From positions 16,276-80,275 of the forward strand of contig JBNKHI010000010.1 of NCBI GenBank assembly GCA_050290265.1: DNA of 64,000 nucleotides. Direction: 5' to 3'. The notes under the pieces were generated by a model that was not told the DNA's origin, searched no databases, and worked only from the letters and a program-made list of their open reading frames with translations. This DNA comes from Cellvibrionaceae bacterium (lineage in GTDB: Bacteria; Pseudomonadota; Gammaproteobacteria; Pseudomonadales; Cellvibrionaceae). This document shows, in pieces, positions 1,988 to 14,600 of this stretch. The translations under genes were made by a program, and so were the position numbers. Position 1 is the first letter of the stretch. Each line of letters starts with the position of its first letter.

Positions 1988-2656
1988 CTACAGCGTATGA
2001 AAAAACCTGTTTTTACGCGGGATATAAAAATTATCGTAGTTAAGCGACAACACAACACTCTTAGCTCGACCCACTATCTCATGCCTTGGAATAAGACCAA
2101 TGACTCTAGAGTCCGCACTGTTATCTCTGTTGTCGCCCATTGCGAGATAATAACCAGCAGGAATCTGCAGTGGTTGAAAATTTGATAACCTGGAACCGTG
2201 TTTATCGATACGGATGAGATGCTCCACACCCACAAGGTTTTCCTGTAGATCTACCGTTGAAGCAGTTGAAGCAGTTGAAGCAGTTGAAGCAGCATCTTTA
2301 TAGGCTATAGGCTGCCCGTTAATAATTAAGGCGTTATTTCTAAGCGCAACAATATCACCCGGTATACCAACGACACGCTTAACAAGCCTTTTTCCAGACA
2401 CCTTTGAATCAAAAATGATGATGTCTCCCCTGGCAGGGTCTGAAAGCTTGAGCAAGGACACGTTCGTAAACGGCACTCTGACATCGTATGCTAATTTGTT
2501 TACAAGAATCCGGTCGCCTTCTACGATCGTCGGCTTCATTGACCCAGTTGGCACTTCATTCCAATCCGCAACAACACTGCGGTAGACAAACATTAACGCA
2601 ATGAAGAGCAGGAATGACTTATTTTCTCGCCATATTTTCAGAATCCGATTTTTCAT
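1988..2656 (-). CDS. lepB: Signal peptidase I (S26 family)
   Basis: N-terminal TM helix, catalytic Ser box GSMKPT, Lys box KRVVGIPGD and the GDNRDNSADSR box. Confidence 0.9.
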   Translation of the reverse strand: MKNRILKIWRENKSFLLFIALMFVYRSVVADWNEVPTGSMKPTIVEGDRILVNKLAYDVRVPFTNVSLLKLSDPARGDIIIFDSKVSGKRLVKRVVGIPGDIVALRNNALIINGQPIAYKDAASTASTASTASTVDLQENLVGVEHLIRIDKHGSRLSNFQPLQIPAGYYLAMGDNRDNSADSRVIGLIPRHEIVGRAKSVVLSLNYDNFYIPRKNRFFHTL

Positions 2657-3077: not shown

Positions 3078-3164
3078 TGATTTCCTATATAGGTATAACG
3101 CGATGCTTTTGGCGCTGGATAAAAGTGTAGCCGCCGCAAGGCCAACAGCGCATTGTTATGCACA

Positions 3165-3437
3165 TTATTTATTGGCTTTACCATAAATTTTAACTTGAAT
3201 AATTGACACTAATAAATATAAAAAAATCCCTACCAATGAAGCTGGCACGTATATTAAATAGGCCCAAACACAAGCTTCTGACACACTATCCAGTGCACAC
3301 AATCTATAATTTCTGATAAAAACGAAAAACAACGGAATACCAAGGGCTAATAAAAACACACCCATATTTCTAATTTTATAGAGGGCAACTATGCACCCCA
3401 CTATTAAAGCTATTAATATAAATGCCCCAAAAAACAC
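3165..3437 (-). CDS. Small integral membrane protein
   Basis: Three hydrophobic helices in 90 aa. No family recognised. Confidence 0.45.
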   Translation of the reverse strand: MFFGAFILIALIVGCIVALYKIRNMGVFLLALGIPLFFVFIRNYRLCALDSVSEACVWAYLIYVPASLVGIFLYLLVSIIQVKIYGKANK

Positions 3438-3538
3438 CTCAAATACTCTCTATGGTATAGAACATTTTCATTCGCATAACACCCAGTTTGGGGCCACAAT
3501 GCGACGGTTTGTCAGGCGCAAGATAAAACCCAGAATGT

Positions 3539-3763
3539 TCACAGTGCTTCCTGCCCTACTATGCAGAACCCATGGCCGAATGGATCACTACAAAACGCTA
3601 CTGGAGAATAACCGGAAACCCTGTGCTCTTCTTCAGATATTGCGCCTGCTGCTAATGCCTTTTTAAGGGTGCCCTCAAAATCTTTGACCCGGAAATCAAT
3701 GTGCACCGGCGTCCAGTACCGTCTAACGACTGCCTCAATGCTGACCTGTGGAGCGCAAGGCAT
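3539..3763 (-). pseudogene. C-terminal half of a VOC/glyoxalase-like domain (probable remnant)
   Basis: VHIDFRVKDFEGTLKKALAAGA...DPFGHGFCIV matches only the C-terminal half of glyoxalase-like domains. The longer ORF form (to 3850) overlaps the upstream VOC gene by 71 nt and has no recognisable N-terminal half. Confidence 0.4.
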
Positions 3764-3779
3764 CCACTGTAGCCATTGG

Positions 3780-4139
3780 CTATGCGCCCAGCTCTGACCA
3801 AACAGCAAACTCATTGCCACAGGGTTCTGTGAAGTGGAAGCGACGGCCACCCGGAAAAGAGAAAATCGGCTTAACTATTTTACCGCCAGCGTTAGATACC
3901 TTAGCCAACGTCGACTCAAGGTCGTTGCTATAAAAGACAAGCAAAGCCGCACCGTTTGAAGTATTTGAATGTAAGTTTGCCTTAAAGAATCCACCATCAA
4001 GGCCCTGGCCCGAAAATGCGGTATAGTCAGGGCCATAGTCCACGAAGGACCAGTTGAACGCCTTTTCGAAGAATGCTTTTGTCGCACTGAGATCAGCAGA
4101 CCCAAACTCAACGTAATTCAGCTTTTCATGTTCGTTCAT
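3780..4139 (-). CDS. VOC family protein (glyoxalase/bleomycin-resistance fold)
   Basis: 119 aa: LNYVEFGSADLSATKAFFEKAFNW ... GGRRFHFTEPCGNEFAVW. Confidence 0.8.
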   Translation of the reverse strand: MNEHEKLNYVEFGSADLSATKAFFEKAFNWSFVDYGPDYTAFSGQGLDGGFFKANLHSNTSNGAALLVFYSNDLESTLAKVSNAGGKIVKPIFSFPGGRRFHFTEPCGNEFAVWSELGA

Positions 4140-4390: not shown

Positions 4391-4858
4391 TCATCGTGTG
4401 CGATAGCTATAATGACAGGCAACACATGAGCTGGTTACTTTCTGAAGTGCACTGTATGCATTCTTTAAATCACCTTGTTTGGCGATTTTTGAAAATTCTG
4501 TTGCCGCAGTATGCATACTCTGACCTATATTTCGCATTTCAACAGGCATAAACCTGCCTGGGCCTATACCCGTGCCACGATGCTTCCCTATTGAACTTAG
4601 CCCCATTTTAGTTTCTGCAATATCTGCAGCTGCATCAAGGTTATTGGATGCGAGATAACCGATTATTTGGTTCAAGGACAATAGATGGTCCAACATATCT
4701 TTACGCATAAGCTCGCGTGATTGATCAGGCATTGATACTAATATACGAGTATCTCCACCAGCAGAACTTTCTACATTTTGAGATTTGTTAATTGCTTCTT
4801 CGCTATGAGCAGTTTGAGATGCGAGTAAAATCAAAGAGATAAATACGTTTTTGTACAT
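4391..4858 (-). CDS. Class II c-type cytochrome (cytochrome c'-like), exported
   Basis: Signal peptide MYKNVFISLILLASQTAHS. A single CxxCH (CVACH) lies 8 residues from the C-terminus, the class II arrangement. Confidence 0.7.
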   Translation of the reverse strand: MYKNVFISLILLASQTAHSEEAINKSQNVESSAGGDTRILVSMPDQSRELMRKDMLDHLLSLNQIIGYLASNNLDAAADIAETKMGLSSIGKHRGTGIGPGRFMPVEMRNIGQSMHTAATEFSKIAKQGDLKNAYSALQKVTSSCVACHYSYRTR

Positions 4859-4988
4859 GAGAATATCCTCTGTTAAAGACTATTTTCTAAATGATATACG
4901 TACAATCTAGCAAGTTCCTAACAGTCGCGTAATAGGCGCAAGCTTGCGAGCGTCCTTATTGACGCGTTTGTTAGCTGGCGGGCTAGAA

Positions 4989-6620
4989 TCATGCTAGTTT
5001 CTTTTCCTTGGCAGGCTTTCCCTTTTTCTTTATCTCAAGGACTGGATCAACCTCTATTGCTGAAATGGAAACACTGAAATTCAGTGTTTTTAACGTTTTC
5101 AGTGCATTTTTTAAAGTCACTTTTGAAAAAAACGGCAGGTCTTTGGGGATATCTCGATTTGCGGCAACCGCATAGATTATTTTATATTTACTTGGGTCTG
5201 GCCTAGAGTCAGTGCATGTCAATTTTGAGGATTTTGGAAGTTTATCATTTAATCGCCTCCTGAAATCAGCATCACCAATAAACGCCTCAGAAGCAACAAA
5301 CCCCTGTGAGAACAGGTGACTTAAAGTGGCAGAACTTCTGTAGTACTTAACATGAATAAATTCACTGGAGTCTTTAATTAAATCGCAAAATTCGAGTTTG
5401 TCATGAGGCCCGCCAATTTTTACAAACTTCTTATCCATTAATTCAATGTTATCAAATGATGCGACCACAAATTCATTATAGTCCTCCTCTCTGTCGTGCG
5501 AGTAGGTAGGAAATTTAAAGTCGTAGACATCAAAGCCTTCCAAGTACTTATCTACACTAGCCACGAAGTCTGTATTTACGATATACCACTGACCATTTCG
5601 CAAAATGTATTGCTCATTTTCTGTAGAAACCTCTGCATATATACATCTGTAAGCGGACCATTTCTTAATAGAATTGTACTCGCTATCGTTAATGTGAACA
5701 CTTTGATTCTTAAGACTATCTGATGTCAAAGGTATGCTTTTTTCAATAAAGTACTTTACCAAATCATCAATTTTTAGGACAACGTGCCTAGGTGTCTTTT
5801 GATACAAATCGAACGAATAGCCAACTTGTGATTCCCAATCGATAATCTCCGGCTCTCCAAGCCACATATTCTTAAATTCACCTTTAGCTAGAATATCATC
5901 AAGCTCTAGATCCAATACCTCATGCAGCTCTTTATCCTTAACTCGTTGAATATTTTCAACCCACTCAAAATCCTTAGGTAGAGATGATTTATACCTCAGC
6001 AAACACTCTGAAAGAATTTCTTTTAACCCATTTAGATTCACTTCTAAGACTAGAGTAAGTGCATCCCTTCCAGTCACATGAGAACCAAATATTGGAACCG
6101 TAGATGCACCGGTTACCGCGTAAAGCATGTCCATTTCAGAGTCAACATCTAGATCAAACACACCCAAATCGATTGAACTCTGTGTTCTCGAATTAAGGGG
6201 GTTGTGATCATAGCTAGCCTTATCGAGGCTTCTTAATTTGTCTGGGTCTACGGAATTTAGCGTTACACGTAGCCCGAAATCTCTTTCTATAGCTTCATTC
6301 TTAAGAAGATGAAAACCAGTCCCAAAAGTCAATACGAATAGGTTTTCATCCAGCCTAACCATCAATGCAGCCCCGACAGATCTTCTACCTCCAAATATAT
6401 CCTCTGGTAGATCCTGATGTTCTGTAAAGAGCTTTGTCCATGGAGGTGGCGGCTTCGGGGGCTCTTTTTTTACATAAAGAGTCGCTTCAAGACCCTGTAC
6501 TTCCATCTCGATAGGGGGCTTAGAGTTCTCGAGATTAACTGCCTTTGAAACGTCGCACTCAATACCTGTCTTGGCTAGGTATATGGATAACTTCTCTTTC
6601 CTTTTCTTTGGCGTTCTCAT
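4989..6620 (-). CDS. TIGR04141/DUF6119-like 'sporadically distributed' protein with PD-(D/E)xK-like C-terminal region
   Basis: 543 aa. N-terminal LSIYLAK, FGTGFHLL and FGLRVTLNSV motifs are recalled as family hallmarks. C-terminal LEFCDL...FIHVKYYRSSATLSHLFSQG. AT-rich relative to neighbours. Confidence 0.8.
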   Translation of the reverse strand: MRTPKKRKEKLSIYLAKTGIECDVSKAVNLENSKPPIEMEVQGLEATLYVKKEPPKPPPPWTKLFTEHQDLPEDIFGGRRSVGAALMVRLDENLFVLTFGTGFHLLKNEAIERDFGLRVTLNSVDPDKLRSLDKASYDHNPLNSRTQSSIDLGVFDLDVDSEMDMLYAVTGASTVPIFGSHVTGRDALTLVLEVNLNGLKEILSECLLRYKSSLPKDFEWVENIQRVKDKELHEVLDLELDDILAKGEFKNMWLGEPEIIDWESQVGYSFDLYQKTPRHVVLKIDDLVKYFIEKSIPLTSDSLKNQSVHINDSEYNSIKKWSAYRCIYAEVSTENEQYILRNGQWYIVNTDFVASVDKYLEGFDVYDFKFPTYSHDREEDYNEFVVASFDNIELMDKKFVKIGGPHDKLEFCDLIKDSSEFIHVKYYRSSATLSHLFSQGFVASEAFIGDADFRRRLNDKLPKSSKLTCTDSRPDPSKYKIIYAVAANRDIPKDLPFFSKVTLKNALKTLKTLNFSVSISAIEVDPVLEIKKKGKPAKEKKLA

Positions 6621-6707
6621 CCTAATCCCTCATCAGGGCCAGTTTTTATATTCAGCTAACGCTCAAAGCAGCGGTGCGAAGCATTCGCTGCCTTTGCTTG
6701 TTAAATG

Positions 6708-7727
6708 TTACTGTGAATCCAGTTTCATTGTTGTTTTCGGAATTAGCTCAACAACAGACCTTGTAGTATTTGACTGTTGAGAATCAGATTTAATAAACCC
6801 AGTGTCTTGCGGTGAAAAAATACAAGCGGATGCATGGTTAAGCACTATATCTTTACTTTCTTCAGTTGCTGCCGAATCGGTGATGGCTGTGTACGTCATC
6901 AATGCATTTTGCCTATGCTTATTAACGATGGCGCTATGCTTGTGAGATAGAAAGTTTTTGGCCGATAGAAACAGCATATAAGATATAACACCAAAAATGA
7001 GAATCTTGCTCGTAACAAGCTGTATAGACTGAATGGTATCTTCGGGCTGCAACCAAGACCATTTATGAAAAAATATACTCAAAAAAGCATAAACACCTAG
7101 ACCCAAAGCCAATTTGGTAGTTCTTCTTCGCCAAGTTTCTGCTAGTGCTTCATGCGCCTCCGCCTCATCTTTAAAGTAAATCGCTTGCTGTGAAACACCT
7201 TGCTCTGCTGCAACTTTTCTAACATCTGCAAGAACACCTTGTGCTTGTTCTTGATGCTCAGTTAACTGCTCAGTTATTTCTGATGCTTCATCTTTTACAT
7301 TTTGAAGCATTGCACGAGCTTCATTTTCCATCCTTTGAAAATCAACAGACTTACTCGTACCATATGATATAAATGGGAAGAGTTTCTGAAATGCAGGATC
7401 GTATGCATTCCTAACCTGTTGGATTAATTGATCTCTAGGCTGGGTAGGATTCTGGTTTTCTACAGTAGTTGGATCAAAATCTAAAACCTCCTGAAACCTA
7501 TTATAGTCAGCATCGGCCTGTTGCTTGATTTGAGCAAGTATTTGGTCTGGAAAGTCATCCAGCGTCGAAAGGCCTAACTGATTGTAGAGCCTAATAAGTT
7601 TTGATGCTGGAGCCACAATAGCAGAGAAATCAAAATTCCTTCCCAGTTCTTCCTCTCTAGCAAGGCTTTTCGGATCAAATGCCTGCATCCGAGATAGTGA
7701 CGCTTGTGTTTCTTCCAGTTGACTCAT
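6708..7727 (-). CDS. Coiled-coil protein with two C-proximal TM helices (unknown family)
   Basis: 339 aa. About 200 aa of charged helical sequence, then the TM helices LALGLGVYAFLSIFF and ILIFGVISYMLFLSAKNF. It lies 87 bp upstream of, and co-directional with, the DUF6119-like gene. Confidence 0.75.
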   Translation of the reverse strand: MSQLEETQASLSRMQAFDPKSLAREEELGRNFDFSAIVAPASKLIRLYNQLGLSTLDDFPDQILAQIKQQADADYNRFQEVLDFDPTTVENQNPTQPRDQLIQQVRNAYDPAFQKLFPFISYGTSKSVDFQRMENEARAMLQNVKDEASEITEQLTEHQEQAQGVLADVRKVAAEQGVSQQAIYFKDEAEAHEALAETWRRRTTKLALGLGVYAFLSIFFHKWSWLQPEDTIQSIQLVTSKILIFGVISYMLFLSAKNFLSHKHSAIVNKHRQNALMTYTAITDSAATEESKDIVLNHASACIFSPQDTGFIKSDSQQSNTTRSVVELIPKTTMKLDSQ

Positions 7728-8002
7728 TTTTTCTCCTTACTCGGATAAGACATTTAACATCTATGGACACCCCATTTTTTGCAAGTAAAAAAGCACTGAC
7801 AATTAGGTTTTGCAGCCATCTATTCGGATTTCCAATGAAGCTTTCTTTGGCTTCTATCCCTGATGAACTTCGCTGACCTGGCTCTAATCATTTTAGCGTT
7901 TTTCAAAAAACGATGTTAAACACAGAGTGCCCAAGTCACGGTCTGACCTGCTTTGTCATCAACTTACTTTACTCAGCAAAACAAGGGTATCTAAACTTTA
8001 TA

Positions 8003-8297
8003 TTAAACAGCCACTTGGCTGTACCGTCTATCGTGGGCAAGTATGGCCCAAACAATCCTGACTAATTTGTTCACCAATGCCACCACGACTTTGTTTTTAT
8101 GCATCCTACACAACAGGCTTTGAATCCATTCGTAATACGGCTTACCAGGTTTAATTTGCCTTATCACTGCTCTTGCTCCATGGATAAACATCCGCCTTAA
8201 ATAGCTATCATTTTAATAGCGCGCATGCGCGGTTTCCCGGCAAAGCGATTACTAGCTTTGCCGGTTTAGCTATTTGATTTAACGGTAGTTTTTTCAT
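8003..8297 (-). mobile_element. Internally deleted IS110-family transposase remnant
   Basis: The 62-aa ORF (8003-8191) ends ...HGARAVIRQ...KNKVVVALVNKLVRIVWAIL, like IS110-family C-termini. A 29-aa ORF with an AAGGA RBS (8208-8297) in another frame may be the N-terminal stub. Total length is far short of an intact transposase. Confidence 0.5.
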
Positions 8298-8342
8298 AGT
8301 GACTCAATCCTTCGTTCCAGAAATACGGGCATGCGCGCTATT
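8215..8342. repeat. 14-bp perfect inverted repeat pair flanking the transposase stub
   Basis: aatagcgcgcatgc (8215-8228) and gcatgcgcgctatt (8329-8342). An internal 10-bp stem-loop ccggcaaagc/gctttgccgg lies at 8237-8264. Confidence 0.7.
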
Positions 8343-8593
8343 CTGGTCTCCTTCGCCGGTTATTTCGGATGGGATTTAGCTAACCCCTAGACGGGAAAGG
8401 GTCATTATTAGCACCTTCTGAATAGTCGCGCAAACTTTACGTGCCATTTCCAGAAAAACACGCATTAAAATTACGCCACCTTCAATATACTGTATGAATT
8501 AACAGAAATTGGGCTGACTAGCAGTGCTAGATTATTTGCTCTGTTTTTAGTGCTTGCAGGCTTACCCATGTTTAAAAGTGCTAGGGCCGGTAA

Positions 8594-8628
8594 TAAAAAA
8601 AGCCGCTTCTGGTGTAACCAGAAACGGC
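8594..8628 (-). terminator. Rho-independent terminator of metY
   Basis: Stem gccgcttctgg / ccagaaacggc (one mismatch) preceded on the plus strand by an A-run, which reads as a U-tract on the minus strand. Confidence 0.75.
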
Positions 8629-8725
8629 TGCTAGATTCCCCTACAGAGAAATCGTTCTATTTCATTTTAAATCGATCACTGCCGGTAGTGGGCCAGCACT
8701 GAATGCTGGCCCCCAAATCACGCGA

Positions 8726-9997
8726 TTAGGCTTTATCTAATGCCTGCGATACATCGGCGATGATATCGTCGATATGCTCAATACCTACCGAGATACGCAC
8801 CAGGTCGGCACTCACACCGGCTTTCTTAAGCTCTTCTTCATTCAACTGACGGTGCGTAGTAGAAGCAGGATGACATGCCAGTGATTTCGCATCGCCAATA
8901 TTGACCAAACGTAAAATCATATCGAGCGAATCAATAAACTTGGCACAGGCATCAATACCGCCGGTGATACCAAAACTCAAAATACCTGAGGCTTTGCCTT
9001 TGGTAATTTTTTGGCAGTTTTCATAATACGGGCTATCCGGTAAAGCAGCGTAGTTTACCCACTCTACTTTCGGGTGTTGCTGTAAATATTCCGCCAGGCG
9101 CTGGGCGTTTTCACAATGGCGATCCATTCGCAAACCCAGGGTTTCCAAACCTTGTAAAATTTGAAATGAATTCATCGGCGAAATAGCAGAACCGGTATTG
9201 CGCAGCGGCACTACTCGACAGCGACCAATATACGCGGCAGCACCTAAGGCCTCGGTGTAAACCACACCGTGGTAGGAAGGATCTGGCTCGTTAAGAATCG
9301 GAAAACGGTCTTTATTGGCGACCCAATCAAACTTACCCGAATCGACAATAATGCCGCCAATGGTTGTACCGTGGCCGCCAATATATTTAGTGAGTGAATG
9401 CACTACAATATCGGCACCCAGCTCAAACGGGCGACACAAATACGGCGTAGCCACTGTGTTGTCGACAATCAACGGTACACCGTGTTTGTGGGCAATCTCG
9501 GCCAAACGCGCAATATCGACAATATTACCGGCTGGGTTACCAATCGACTCGCAGAATACCGCTTTGGTATTTTCGTCGATGGCGCTTTCAAAACCCGCAA
9601 AATCATCATGCGACACCATACGTACGTCCACACCTTGGCGCGGCAGCGAGTGCGCAAACAAATTATAGGTACCGCCATACAACTGGCTGGTACTCACAAT
9701 ATTGTCACCCACTTGCGTAATACACTGAATCGCATAGGTGATGGCCGCCATACCAGACGACACCGCCAGCGCTGCAATACCGCCTTCCATCGCTGCTACA
9801 CGTTTTTCCAACACATCGGTGGTTGGGTTCATAATGCGGGTGTAAATATTGCCCGGCACGGCTAGATTAAACAGGTCCGCGCCATGCTGAGTATCATCAA
9901 AGGTATACGATGTGGTTTGATAAATAGGTACCGCCGCAGCTTTGGTGGTAGCTTCGGACTTATAACCTTCGTGCAGTGCAATAGATTCGAGTTTCAT
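8726..9997 (-). CDS. metY: O-acetylhomoserine sulfhydrylase (PLP-dependent)
   Basis: 423 aa: HEGY...PIYQTTSYTFDD..., the PLP-lysine region SLTKYIGGHG, and C-terminal ISVGIEHIDDIIADV. Confidence 0.92.
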   Translation of the reverse strand: MKLESIALHEGYKSEATTKAAAVPIYQTTSYTFDDTQHGADLFNLAVPGNIYTRIMNPTTDVLEKRVAAMEGGIAALAVSSGMAAITYAIQCITQVGDNIVSTSQLYGGTYNLFAHSLPRQGVDVRMVSHDDFAGFESAIDENTKAVFCESIGNPAGNIVDIARLAEIAHKHGVPLIVDNTVATPYLCRPFELGADIVVHSLTKYIGGHGTTIGGIIVDSGKFDWVANKDRFPILNEPDPSYHGVVYTEALGAAAYIGRCRVVPLRNTGSAISPMNSFQILQGLETLGLRMDRHCENAQRLAEYLQQHPKVEWVNYAALPDSPYYENCQKITKGKASGILSFGITGGIDACAKFIDSLDMILRLVNIGDAKSLACHPASTTHRQLNEEELKKAGVSADLVRISVGIEHIDDIIADVSQALDKA

Positions 9998-11282: not shown

Positions 11283-11825
11283 ATGAATACACCTCTAAGT
11301 CCCCCTCTCAATCGCTACATCATGGCGATGCGAATCGTTTTAATTGCAGCCAGCTTAGCTCTTGTTGCCGACGAAATTATTACTTTCTTTTTCAGCTCGC
11401 AGCCTGTTGCGCTACTGATTCAAGGTGAGGTTTGGACAAAACCTCTCACCAGCTTCCAAGCATTTGATAAAGCGGTGCTTTTTTTCATTGTTAATACTGG
11501 GAACTTCTGCTGGCTGTTTGCCTTGTATCAACTCTGGGCGTTATGTGCTCTTTATAGTGACAACCATATTTTCGAGGCGCAAAACGCACGCCACTTCATT
11601 AACATTGGCTATGCCTTAATGGTCATGTCTATCTTGCAAATGTTCGTAGTACCCACTGCTGGAGCGTATTTACTTTACCGGAACATTAGCCCACAAATGC
11701 CTGATATCAATATTTTAGGATTATTGGAACTTGATCTTCTTGTCGCAGGCTTATTATTTTTACTGATTGCGAAAATTATGGAATTCGCTGCGACTATCCA
11801 AGAAGAATCGAAATTAACAATTTAA
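11283..11825 (+). CDS. DUF2975-like multi-pass membrane protein
   Basis: 180 aa with 4-5 TM helices. It directly precedes a YozG-type HTH gene, a pairing recalled as conserved. Confidence 0.65.
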   Translation: MNTPLSPPLNRYIMAMRIVLIAASLALVADEIITFFFSSQPVALLIQGEVWTKPLTSFQAFDKAVLFFIVNTGNFCWLFALYQLWALCALYSDNHIFEAQNARHFINIGYALMVMSILQMFVVPTAGAYLLYRNISPQMPDINILGLLELDLLVAGLLFLLIAKIMEFAATIQEESKLTI

Positions 11826-11846
11826 TTAAAAAACAGGTTTATTAGC

Positions 11847-12077
11847 GTGGCAGAAGAAAGTGCCCAAATAATTGTTAACTTAGATGTCATATTGGCACAA
11901 CGGAAGATGAAACTTTCGGACTTATCAAAAAAAGTTGGTGTAAGTTTAGCTAATTTATCAATCTTAAAAACAGGAAAAGCGAGAGCTATTCGCTTTTCAA
12001 CACTTGCAGCAATATGCGAGGCATTAGAATGTCAGCCAGGAGATTTATTGAAGTACAACACAGAAGATGATCTGTAA
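11847..12077 (+). CDS. XRE/Cro-type helix-turn-helix regulator (YozG-like)
   Basis: 76 aa, GTG start. LDVILAQRKMKLSDLSKKVGVSLANLSILKTGKARAIRFSTLAAICEALECQPGDLL. Confidence 0.85.
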   Translation: MAEESAQIIVNLDVILAQRKMKLSDLSKKVGVSLANLSILKTGKARAIRFSTLAAICEALECQPGDLLKYNTEDDL

Positions 12078-12090
12078 AAGGAGAGGTAAG

Positions 12091-12678
12091 ATGAAACAAA
12101 CACAATATTTTTCGTTCTTGATACTACTAATCGTACCGATTTTAACGTTTAGCGATGCGGTTGCCGCTGACACTGGCTTTTATACGGGTGCAACGATAGG
12201 AAGATCTGGATTATTGTTTGATAGTAAAACTAGCATTGGAGAGATTGATGGAGAATCCGGTAACTCTGGTACTGTTTTAGCTGGGTATAAACACAAGCTA
12301 TATAAAGGCTGGTTTCTCTCCGGTGAGACCTTCTATAGACACGTGGATATAGATAAAACATTTAGCGGCGGCGAAAATATTAAACTTGATTCTCAATATG
12401 GTCTAAATGCGCACATTGGCTATGAATGGCAATGGGGAGAGCTGTATACAATTATTGGGCTTGGTCGTTTTGACTACGAGTTCGTTCAAAATGGAATTTC
12501 TGCCGGCGATGACAATATAAATTCCTTTATTGGTATAGGAACCAGCTTTCAGATCTCAAATTCACTTTCAACAACTCTCGAGTACACAAGTGCTTCGGAC
12601 GAAATAAGTACAAGCTCTGATCCTGAAAAATCTATCGCTTTATACTCAATGCAAGTTGGTCTTAGGTACCATTTCTAA
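12091..12678 (+). CDS. Outer-membrane beta-barrel protein (OmpA-like barrel/OmpX-type)
   Basis: Signal peptide MKQTQYFSFLILLIVPILTFSDAVA, alternating beta-strand pattern, and terminal LRYHF aromatic residue. Start chosen at the internal ATG (12091). Confidence 0.75.
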   Translation: MKQTQYFSFLILLIVPILTFSDAVAADTGFYTGATIGRSGLLFDSKTSIGEIDGESGNSGTVLAGYKHKLYKGWFLSGETFYRHVDIDKTFSGGENIKLDSQYGLNAHIGYEWQWGELYTIIGLGRFDYEFVQNGISAGDDNINSFIGIGTSFQISNSLSTTLEYTSASDEISTSSDPEKSIALYSMQVGLRYHF

Positions 12679-13095
12679 AACCATCTTAGGCACCATTTCT
12701 AAAACTAAACGTAGCCCACTACTGCTGATACATATTAAGGACGTATTATAGGATTCATAATACGTCCTACTTGTAGGATAGACCAAAGTTTTCTGTAATT
12801 TTCAATTTAATGAATATTGAAAACACTCTGCGTTATGTTTAAGAAAATTAATACCCAACACTCACCTTTTATTAAAATACAAACATAATAACGCTTATTG
12901 ATTCTTATCTTTTTGGTTTGTCACAAGATATTGCTCTGTACCGAACAGCTAAAATATCACCGTTTAAAATTGCATGAGTAATTGAATCATCACGTTAATA
13001 GAAAAGAATACTACCTGATATCTTCCTAACAATTACACCTTCAAGGCTAAGCGCTAGCAGGCTACCCGTGTTTAACATTAATAGAGGAAAGCCAT

Positions 13096-13136
13096 AAAAA
13101 AAGCCGCTTCGTGTGTAACCAGAAGCGGCTTTTTTT
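13096..13136. terminator. Bidirectional Rho-independent terminator downstream of pyk
   Basis: A-run, stem gccgcttc (13103-13110) / gaagcggc (13122-13129), then a T-run at 13130-13136. Confidence 0.8.
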
Positions 13137-13154
13137 ACAGTTATTAACTAATCA

Positions 13155-14600
13155 TTAATGTTTGTCGCCTACGCGGATAATCCGCATGGTGTCTGTACCA
13201 CCGTGTACGTTTAGGTAATCACCTTTCGACATAATCACCATATCACCGGTTGTCACCGCTTCACGACGCAACAATTCGTCAATGACAGCCGGGGTAATCA
13301 AGTCTGGCGACATTTGATCGGTACCAATACTGACGGGCGTTACACCACGATACAGTGCCAAGCGTCGTTGTGTATCCGGGTGCGTGGTAAATGCAAACAG
13401 CGGGATACCCGAGCTGATGCGCGACATTAACAAAGGCGTATGCCCGGTTTCGGTTAGACTGACAATCGCTTTTACACCGTCCATATGGTTTGCCGCATAC
13501 ATGACTGACATTGCAATTGCTTCGTCGATACGGCCAAAATGTTGATGTAAGCGATGCTGAGACTGCTGTGTTTGACGCTGTCGCTCTGCCCCCAAAATAA
13601 CGCGACACATGGCTTCAACAGTTTCCACTGGGTAGTCACCGGCAGCGGTCTCTGCCGATAACATTACCGCATCGGTTCCATCCAGTACGGCGTTGGCTAC
13701 GTCAAATACTTCAGCTCGCGTAGGCAGTGGGCTGGTGATCATGGTTTCCATCATTTGTGTGGCGGTAATCACAACGGTATTCAATTGCCGCGAGCGTTTG
13801 ATCATGTGCTTTTGTACGGCAATCAATTCCGCATCGCCAATTTCTACACCAAGATCGCCCCGTGCAACCATGACTGCATCCGACGCAATAATAATTCCAT
13901 CCAGTACATCGTGATCATTCACGGCTTCGGCACGCTCAACTTTAGCCACAATGCCAGCATTGCCACCCGCTTTATGCAAAAGCTCGCGGGCTTTTTCGAC
14001 ATCTGCCGCATTGCGAACAAAGGATACGGCCAGGTAATCAACACCAATTTTTGCGGCCAGTTCTATATCGCGAAAATCTTTTTCGGTTAAGGCATCGGCA
14101 GACAAACCACCGCCTTCGCGATTAATACCTTTGTTGTTGCTGAGCTTGCCACCAGAAAACACGGTGGTTTCAATACGATTACCGTTGACGGTTTCGACCA
14201 GTAAAATAACCCGACCATCATCCAGTAATAACTTATCGCCCGGCGATACATCTTGCGGCAATTGCCGATAATCAATACCGACCTCATGCTGATTACCCGC
14301 GTCGCGATCAAGATCTGCATCCAGCGCAAAGCGGTCACCGTTTTTCAATTTAATCGGACCGTCTGCAAAACGCGAAATGCGAATCTTTGGCCCTTGTAAG
14401 TCACCCAGTACGGCGACGGTACGGCCAATTTTATCTGCAATAGCACGCACATTATTGGCACGCTCCATATGATCCTCTGGACCACCATGGGAGAAATTAA
14501 GCCGGACAACATTCACTCCCGCACGCAAGACTTTTTCCAACGTGACTATATCGTCCGTAGCAGGACCGAGGGTAGCAACAATTTTGGTTCGACGAATCAC
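13155..14600 (-). CDS. pykA: Pyruvate kinase
   Basis: 481 aa: [12 protein letters not shown]..., [16 protein letters not shown]. Confidence 0.95.

Follow-up and report, generated by a model that had tools for sequence, protein, structure and literature searches.

A 64,000-nucleotide stretch of contig JBNKHI010000010.1 from a Cellvibrionaceae bacterium (assembly GCA_050290265.1; positions 16,276 to 80,275), hereafter the window, contains two adjacent genes on its minus strand, A and B. An earlier note, made from the letters alone, had presented them as a candidate two-gene module for phage defence or abortive infection in a horizontally acquired, AT-rich island. Upon comparison with other genomes, A and B are very probably two adjacent integron cassettes, each mobile independently of the other. 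The segment 4922-7757 is read as a minimal and partly decayed CALIN (a cluster of attC sites from which the integron integrase is missing), beside the remnant of an IS110 insertion sequence (IS) and the metY gene (8726..9997). The genes, cassettes and recombination sites are as follows.

4989..6620, minus strand: gene A, encoding a 543-aa protein of the DUF6119/TIGR04141 family; cargo of cassette A
6708..7727, minus strand: gene B, encoding a 339-aa helical, membrane-associated protein, distant relative of DUF6161; cargo of cassette B
4922..6659, minus strand: cassette A, 1738 bp, from T6659 (after the upstream crossover) to G4922
6660..7757, minus strand: cassette B, 1098 bp, with attC_B as its 3' end
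7752..7758, minus strand: core site GTTAAAT, 5' boundary of cassette B and remnant R' of the preceding site
6654..6706, minus strand: attC of cassette B (attC_B), R'' ATTTAAC at 6706-6700, R' GTTAGCT at 6660-6654, crossover G6660/T6659
4916..4976, minus strand: attC of cassette A (attC_A), R'' AGCTAAC at 4976-4970, R' GTTAGGA at 4922-4916, crossover G4922/T4921

The boundaries of the cassettes were set by the limits of similarity between genomes. In Bowmanella denitrificans (locus L001), A is 96% identical, and the 94% nucleotide identity found by blastn is confined to positions 4926-6662 of the window, that is, to the gene and about 40-60 bp on either side. Upstream of A, similarity starts exactly at G|TTAGCT, ~40 nt before the start codon, in the window and seven other genomes (L001, L002, L003, L004, L007, L017 and L076). 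On the 5' side of this motif, each of the eight genomes has a different attC. Downstream of A, all copies start with CAGCTAAC, and those with an intact site (window, L002, L004 and L017) diverge fully after GTTA. An attC homologous to attC_A follows A in L017, L002, L178 and others. Loci L082 and L085 share with the window the point at which cassette B starts, G|TTAAATGT (7758/7757); in these two loci, the core provides the R' end of a canonical attC lying upstream. As the shared sequence is bounded by G|TTRRRY crossovers, cassette A was assigned to 4922-6659 and cassette B to 6660-7757. These comparisons show each gene to travel with its own attC.

The two open reading frames (ORFs) are co-directional and 87 bp apart, as had been described, and most of this spacer is occupied by attC_B. 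Both attC_B (53 nt) and attC_A (61 nt) lie directly 3' of the stop codons and are oriented as their genes. When each is folded as a single strand, a short spacer separates the R-box stem from the L-box stem, which has bulged bases and is closed by a terminal loop; in attC_A, the R box is followed by a 2-nt spacer, the bulged L box and the loop, with a computed energy of -13.9 kcal/mol. When 22 candidate attCs were aligned, 88% of the cells were paired in the canonical register, compared with 29-44% when the register was slid, and compensatory double changes were present at 10 of 11 L-box pairs. Because attC_B separates A and B, integron recombination would have placed two cassettes side by side.

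Recognition of the sites was examined with covariance models. A model including the attCs of the window (R1) was circular, and a leave-out model (R2), derived from 15 sites after exclusion of the window and of its evident homologues, was used in its place. R2 was run over the full window on both strands, without filters. The top match was attC_B (6651-6709, minus strand, E 1.5e-6) and the second was attC_A (4913-4979, minus strand, E 0.0028), the third match having already an E-value of 2.5. Related loci totalling 2.1 Mb gave 131 matches to R2 (85 + 22 + 24); every one of them had the same orientation as the A or B gene, and they were arranged in regularly spaced arrays.

Each unit would thus comprise a single gene, preceded by a promoter-proximal G|TTRRRY core and followed by an attC. 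From what is established for integrons, the integron integrase IntI would act on the bottom strand of the attC in its folded form, and the cassette would be excised as a circle. The circle would then be reinserted at an attI or attC site, with the crossover between G and TT. Recombination of cassettes by IntI would account for the mobility of single genes, the sharp breakpoints of homology and the chance adjacency of unrelated genes. As no intI gene is found nearby, both cassettes are probably fixed at present, unless IntI acts in trans.

To look for an association of the two genes, a profile of the B family was run in six-frame translation over 75 DUF6119 loci (75 species), each taken with flanks of 10 kb. 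B was found within 10 kb of DUF6119 in 0 of the 75 loci, in agreement with tblastn; as a positive control, the profile retrieved the B gene of the window at E 1.6e-180. DUF6119 was likewise found in 0 of 80 metagenomic loci encoding relatives of B. Clusters at 90% identity or above comprise copies of A in Bowmanella, Acinetobacter and Shewanella, and copies of B in Salinivibrio, Neptunomonas and Halomonas; the named hosts do not overlap, and these copies are devoid of the partner. A B gene 94% identical to that of the window is followed by three unrelated genes in Thalassolituus, and one exact B sequence, 90% identical to that of the window, occurs in at least four different neighbourhoods. 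No recurrent neighbour was found for either A or B; the genes directly following B are mixed (methylase, DUF6994, resolvase, LprI, DUF2726 and Fic). The two-gene module is therefore not supported, since the partner is absent from both collections and near-identical copies occur alone, and an attC lies between the two genes. The only other genome with the order B then A is Vibrio navarrensis, where both genes have diverged to a similar degree (76 and 78%).

Both families were found in integrons elsewhere. A is directly flanked by an attC in 10 of the 75 species loci and in V. navarrensis, all of these being marine or halophilic Gammaproteobacteria. Loci L076 and L178 likewise have an attC beside A. 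An attC directly follows B in 27 of 73 other loci (37%). In locus L096, a divergently oriented integron integrase (TIGR02249, 271.7 bits for a cutoff of 265) adjoins B, which there takes the first cassette position. In V. navarrensis, B and A are each followed by a 129-nt direct repeat, the copies of which are 88% identical; judged by its sequence, this repeat is of the Vibrio cholerae repeat (VCR) class of attC. In V. mimicus, B is located within a 13-site VCR array, with an acetyltransferase cassette next to it. In V. tubiashii pFP31, B is part of a long VCR array, amid Hhe, HEPN-associated, GIY-YIG, AbiH and AAA cassettes. The attC following this copy of B (L164, 9018-9124) carries a mutation in its R'' box (TTTAAC changed to TTTAAA) and escapes the model; independent excision of this cassette has probably been lost. 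In Halomonas sp. H5, an attC lies on either side of B, which directly precedes a CTD7, MC3 and LmuB_C cassette. The latter, a three-gene block apparently forming one attC-bounded cassette of ~4 kb (L175, 6078-10062), is unusually large and is taken to be a Lamassu-type system. In Acinetobacter venetianus (L178, 5001-6708), an A cassette at least 90% identical to that of the window, with its own attC, stands alone beside glyQS, and this attC is a single site outside any array. Outside integrons, the neighbours of A include tyrosine integrases, type I restriction-modification (R-M) genes, ParB/RepB-like genes and a large serine recombinase. A is also present in the accessory end of a Pseudomonas phage, with an integrase gene on either side, and was found on 27 plasmids; rhizobial megaplasmids are among its locations.

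Several observations weigh against the cassette interpretation. The training attCs were preselected with a folding filter, which inflates the percentage of paired cells. The E-values of the covariance model are rough, owing to a short calibration, and that of attC_A (0.0028) is only moderately strong when taken alone. A generic scan for the attC pattern and fold is unspecific, as it yielded 18 matches in the window for 11-20 in shuffled windows, and matched after 4.3% of unrelated genes. The significant attC sites number just two, both on the minus strand and separated by 1.7 kb. The genes and sites intI, attI and the cassette promoter Pc were not found in the window, although no dedicated search was made for attI or Pc and not every ORF was checked for intI. 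On the 5' side of the core of cassette B, no recognizable attC or attI arm is present in 7759-8450. About 64 of the 75 species loci of A have no attC, and DUF6119 is therefore not intrinsically a cassette family. Finally, pure independence does not explain why the order B then A recurs in V. navarrensis. When ascertainment is allowed for, this recurrence concerns 1 of about 11 other arrays with an A cassette, with an attC type that differs from that of the window, and block transfer or chance is sufficient to explain it. The generic scan, being no better than shuffles, was dropped as evidence and kept to harvest candidate sites; because of its lack of specificity, the case for the cassettes rests on the covariance model and the comparative breakpoints.

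The flanks of the cassettes were then inspected, with the following features.

8003..8191, minus strand: C-terminal fragment of an IS110-family transposase, 62 aa, matching positions 286-342 of 343 of NF033542 (E 4e-12)
4391..4858, minus strand: cytochrome c'-like gene, 155 aa (PF01322, 31.7 bits), starting just after the attC_A crossover
3090..3162, minus strand: weak attC-like relic after a 90-aa membrane ORF (3165-3437), GCATAAC...GCGTTATAC, with E 2.6 for R2 and E 5.7 for R1, not significant

The match to NF033542 bears out the IS110-like remnant that had been noticed upstream. It consists of the last 57 residues of the transposase, and 244 bp separate it from the upstream boundary of cassette B. 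No relative of this remnant was found in the plasmid collection or among the fetched loci, and the ends of the element could not be drawn by comparison, as the intact IS110 of locus L007 is unrelated. This full-length IS110-family transposase (L007, 16302-17324) lies in the locus of a DUF6119 cassette and, with the remnant of the window counted, makes a second such association. Tetu and Holmes are said to have described in 2008 an IS1111-attC group of the IS110 family that targets attC sites. For a comparison with this group, the window holds just the 62-aa transposase fragment, 244 bp from the core site of cassette B.

The metY gene and the IS110 fragment stand where intI would be. No intI was found in the Pfam gene list covering 10 kb on either side, and four window ORFs of 321-340 aa that were tested are housekeeping enzymes. 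CALIN is a term, and a threshold, of the program IntegronFinder. With at least two close attCs in the same orientation and no intI found, the locus has the composition of a CALIN and not that of a complete integron; with two attCs and no intI, attI or Pc found, the word integron applies in the CALIN sense only.

Downstream of cassette A, the co-directional genes encode a cytochrome c'-like protein, a glyoxalase, a truncated second glyoxalase, a 90-aa membrane protein and an ABM monooxygenase. R2 gives no significant attC after the 4391..4858 gene, which is probably a further, decayed cassette. The small downstream genes had no matches as cassettes in the fetched loci. A second weak attC-like match lies at 3471-3520 on the minus strand (R2 E 5.6, not significant), and this site and that at 3090-3162 may be decayed attCs that extend the cassette cluster. 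Of a glyoxalase-like domain (PF18029), the 103-aa ORF at 3542-3850 (minus strand) encodes just the C-terminal portion, positions 42-106 of 106. This ORF, which overlaps an intact glyoxalase gene (3780-4139, minus strand) at the end of the latter, looks like a truncated second cassette gene.

The compositional dip at A and B is real but modest. The G+C content is 40.1% for 4922-7758 compared with a window mean of 45.6% (standard deviation 3.0), and 2.9% of equal-sized windows are as low. The G+C counts made by hand for the earlier note (21, 22, 25 and 27 of 60) are all exact. The horizontal acquisition proposed in that note is supported. A patch of lower G+C content is found at 11.5-13.25 kb. 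This second, deeper patch (11500-13250, 33-40% G+C) contains an outer-membrane beta-barrel gene (12067-12678, plus strand), an HTH_26 regulator and a DUF2975 gene, with a 24-bp repeat at 12660-12705, and is possibly another acquired islet.

Two further repeats were recorded in the window. A perfect 9-bp tandem repeat of 4.1 copies (GTTGAAGCA on the plus strand) is found at 2256-2292, in frame inside an S26 signal-peptidase gene (1988-2656, minus strand); it encodes a tripeptide repeat, for which a length-variable segment is possible. An intergenic element of ~80 bp follows metY (about 8549-8629) and includes a terminator hairpin (8629-8601). A second copy, 79% identical, follows the pyruvate kinase gene (about 13050-13130), and the element may be a repeated extragenic one.

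The assignment of protein A to the DUF6119/TIGR04141 family, first proposed from short motifs, is firm. A matches PF19614 (DUF6119) with 449.1 bits (cutoff 27, E 2.8e-134) over positions 1-523 of 524, and TIGR04141 with 564.6 bits (cutoff 35, E 1.7e-169) over positions 1-516 of 516. The motifs LSIYLAK (residue 11), FGTGFHLL (residue 99) and FGLRVTLN (residue 115) are exactly as had been quoted. The AlphaFold2 (AF2) model of A has a pLDDT of 77 and a pTM of 0.68. Over homologues of 29-59% identity, the invariant polar residues are E378, D396, E410, C412, D413, H423, K425, S434, H435, Q439 and R454. In the model, D413 and H423-x-K425 are placed at or on consecutive β-strands, and the next element is a helix carrying the invariant Q439. 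The C-terminal α/β domain, with E378, D396, E410-x-C-D413, H423-x-K425 and Q439, is reminiscent of a metal-dependent nuclease centre of the PD-(D/E)xK type, as judged from this residue pattern. Residues 131-167 (window about 6120-6230; LRSLDKASYDHNPLNSRTQS...) are near-invariant, yet have a pLDDT of 22-43, and are predicted to be a conserved flexible loop.

The description of A as nuclease-like did not go beyond an impression from a residue pattern, as no profile or fold search backs it. The top alignment of the model in the Protein Data Bank (PDB) by Foldseek is the CdiA-CT toxin 4g6u, which is insignificant (E 0.056, probability 0.82, template-modelling scores of 0.17 and 0.37), and no significant fold match was found in the PDB or in BFVD. 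Sequence and profile searches of A against the PDB were empty. When isolated domains of A were searched against Pfam, DUF6119 alone was matched, with no nuclease signal. In the literature, no functional statement on DUF6119 was found, and a full-text search yielded no defence paper naming the family, in line with the absence of an established function that had been stated at the outset.

Protein B is all-helical in its AF2 model (pLDDT 77), with long helices at residues 109-220 and 231-285. Its hydrophobicity profile shows a strong segment at ~235-260 and a weaker one at ~204-221. A helical membrane protein, as had been announced, is therefore retained; of its two transmembrane helices, both are plausible and just one, at ~235-260, is clear-cut. 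The motif EQGVSQQA is conserved before the hydrophobic hairpin, and NKHRQNAL after it. The match of B to PF19658 (DUF6161) reaches 19.1 bits, under the gathering threshold of 27; residues 148-316, in the C-terminal half, align weakly with positions 46-214 of the profile. DUF6161 is matched by 8 of 61 members of the B family at E ≤ 0.01, with a best value of 1.6e-5. From these alignments, B would be best treated as a separate family, distantly related to DUF6161. The fold search with the model of B returned coiled-coil noise and nothing informative.

For the function of the two proteins, A and B are taken to be stand-alone accessory genes with no conserved partners. The best guess for A is a single-protein effector targeting nucleic acids, in defence or abortive infection, and that for B a membrane-acting effector or sensor. 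In V. cholerae, 16 of 88 tested cassettes of unknown function were anti-phage (Darracq et al., 10.1101/2024.07.02.601686). Compact anti-phage systems have been proven to occur among integron cassettes, which makes A and B reasonable candidates for a functional screen. Their surroundings are also rich in defence genes, with the Hhe, HEPN-associated, GIY-YIG, AbiH and Lamassu-like neighbours in arrays holding B, and the type I R-M genes near A. These indications must be set against a series of negative results: PADLOC gave no match for A or B at E ≤ 1, no nuclease signal or fold match was obtained as described above, no experimental report of a defence function of A or B was found in the literature, and neither is among the validated cassettes of two cassette-defence preprints (10.1101/2024.07.02.601686 included). 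From these analyses, an anti-phage role might be proposed tentatively for A, and with slightly more reserve for B. A broader proposal would make DUF6119/TIGR04141 an unrecognized single-protein anti-phage or anti-plasmid system with a new, possibly nuclease, effector fold, spread by cassettes, prophages, plasmids and islands, and B a second, independent cassette-borne effector of abortive infection; this combination is considered doubtful. In a weaker variant of this proposal, the recurring order B then A would reflect functional synergy of the two cassettes.

It is an even question whether A and/or B instead serve purposes other than immunity, as a toxin or addiction system stabilizing the array, in the maintenance of mobile elements, or in niche adaptation. 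The 72 of 88 V. cholerae cassettes without anti-phage activity (10.1101/2024.07.02.601686) and the lack of similarity of A and B to the known defence proteins of PADLOC point in this direction, as do the ParB/RepB-like and recombinase genes beside A, its presence on rhizobial megaplasmids, and the metabolic appearance of the neighbouring cassettes of the window (cytochrome c', glyoxalase and ABM). On the other hand, both families recur in defence-rich neighbourhoods, A is found in a prophage accessory region, and both have spread between distant hosts at 90% identity or above, which is typical of defence genes. In addition, the one mention found in the literature has a protein language model rating a DUF6161 family as a defence candidate (10.1101/2025.01.08.631966), of which B is only a distant relative.

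That B and A form a functional two-gene module for defence or abortive infection, the attC being incidental or the pair being kept by selection, is very unlikely. The repetition of the order B then A in V. navarrensis, with a similar divergence of the two genes, would fit such a module. A might also be read through from B, with both genes pointing the same way and a spacer in which no promoter-like site turned up; the promoter scan found fewer such sites than in shuffled sequences and is hence uninformative. Moreover, B precedes nuclease genes in some loci (HNH in Thalassolituus, GIY-YIG in V. tubiashii). Against this, the partner is missing from both collections and from the copies at 90% identity or above, the recurrence is limited to a single array, and the Vibrio-type B of V. 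mimicus is followed by the acetyltransferase cassette. A pairing of B with a variable downstream nuclease was considered and rejected, as the GIY-YIG junction holds an attC remnant and the genes following B are mutually unrelated.

That the attC-like elements are terminators or chance palindromes in a generic island inserted with the help of IS110 is highly improbable: the modest fold z-scores of the single sites (-2.0 to -2.3), the loose pattern scan and the adjoining IS110 fragment would agree with it, but neither hairpin of the window is followed by a T-run, the sole terminator-like call, in attC_A, is on the opposite strand, R2 singles out exactly attC_A and attC_B, and the conservation of R'' and R', the strand bias of 131 out of 131, the arrays, the IntI of L096 and the breakpoints at G|TT would not be expected.

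With A and B regarded as two independent cassettes, their adjacency says nothing about a shared function, and the right genetic unit is the single cassette. A small CALIN beside an IS remnant is ordinary as a genomic feature. The contribution lies rather in what are, as far as is known, the first contextual facts for two sizeable, uncharacterised families. A subclade of DUF6119/TIGR04141 is carried by cassettes and moves between distant hosts at 90% identity or above, and the B family is a common integron cassette, often in defence-rich arrays.

The locus resembles the cassettes of known CALINs in having one gene and one attC per unit, R''-L''...L'-R' boxes with bulged bases and a variable loop, G|TTRRRY boundaries and co-directional units, with the same cassettes in true integrons elsewhere and no integrase nearby. 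It differs by having just two significant attCs and a disrupted upstream end. At 1.1 and 1.7 kb, its cassettes are larger than typical ones. The sedentary chromosomal integrons of Vibrio, of VCR type (10.1101/2024.07.02.601686), harbour homologues of A and/or B as cassettes (V. navarrensis, V. mimicus and V. tubiashii), near defence cassettes, and share with the window the single-gene organization; the attCs of the window measure 53 and 61 nt instead of the 120-130 nt of VCRs, and there is neither a long array nor IntIA.

Among protein families, B resembles DUF6161 by a helical architecture with a membrane hairpin and by the weak alignment of the C-terminal half, and differs in scoring under the threshold, most members of its family having no DUF6161 match. 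A may resemble the PD-(D/E)xK nucleases that serve as defence effectors (Mrr-like, RecB-like and CdiA-CT 4g6u) by D413 and H423-x-K425 at or on consecutive strands and by the helix of Q439, with the difference that a histidine stands in place of the canonical acidic residue. With respect to DUF6119/TIGR04141, the "sporadically distributed protein", A is a full-length, high-scoring member, and the present analysis adds that a marine gammaproteobacterial subclade is cassette-borne, and that the family as a whole lacks a conserved partner gene and possesses an invariant acidic/His/Lys core.

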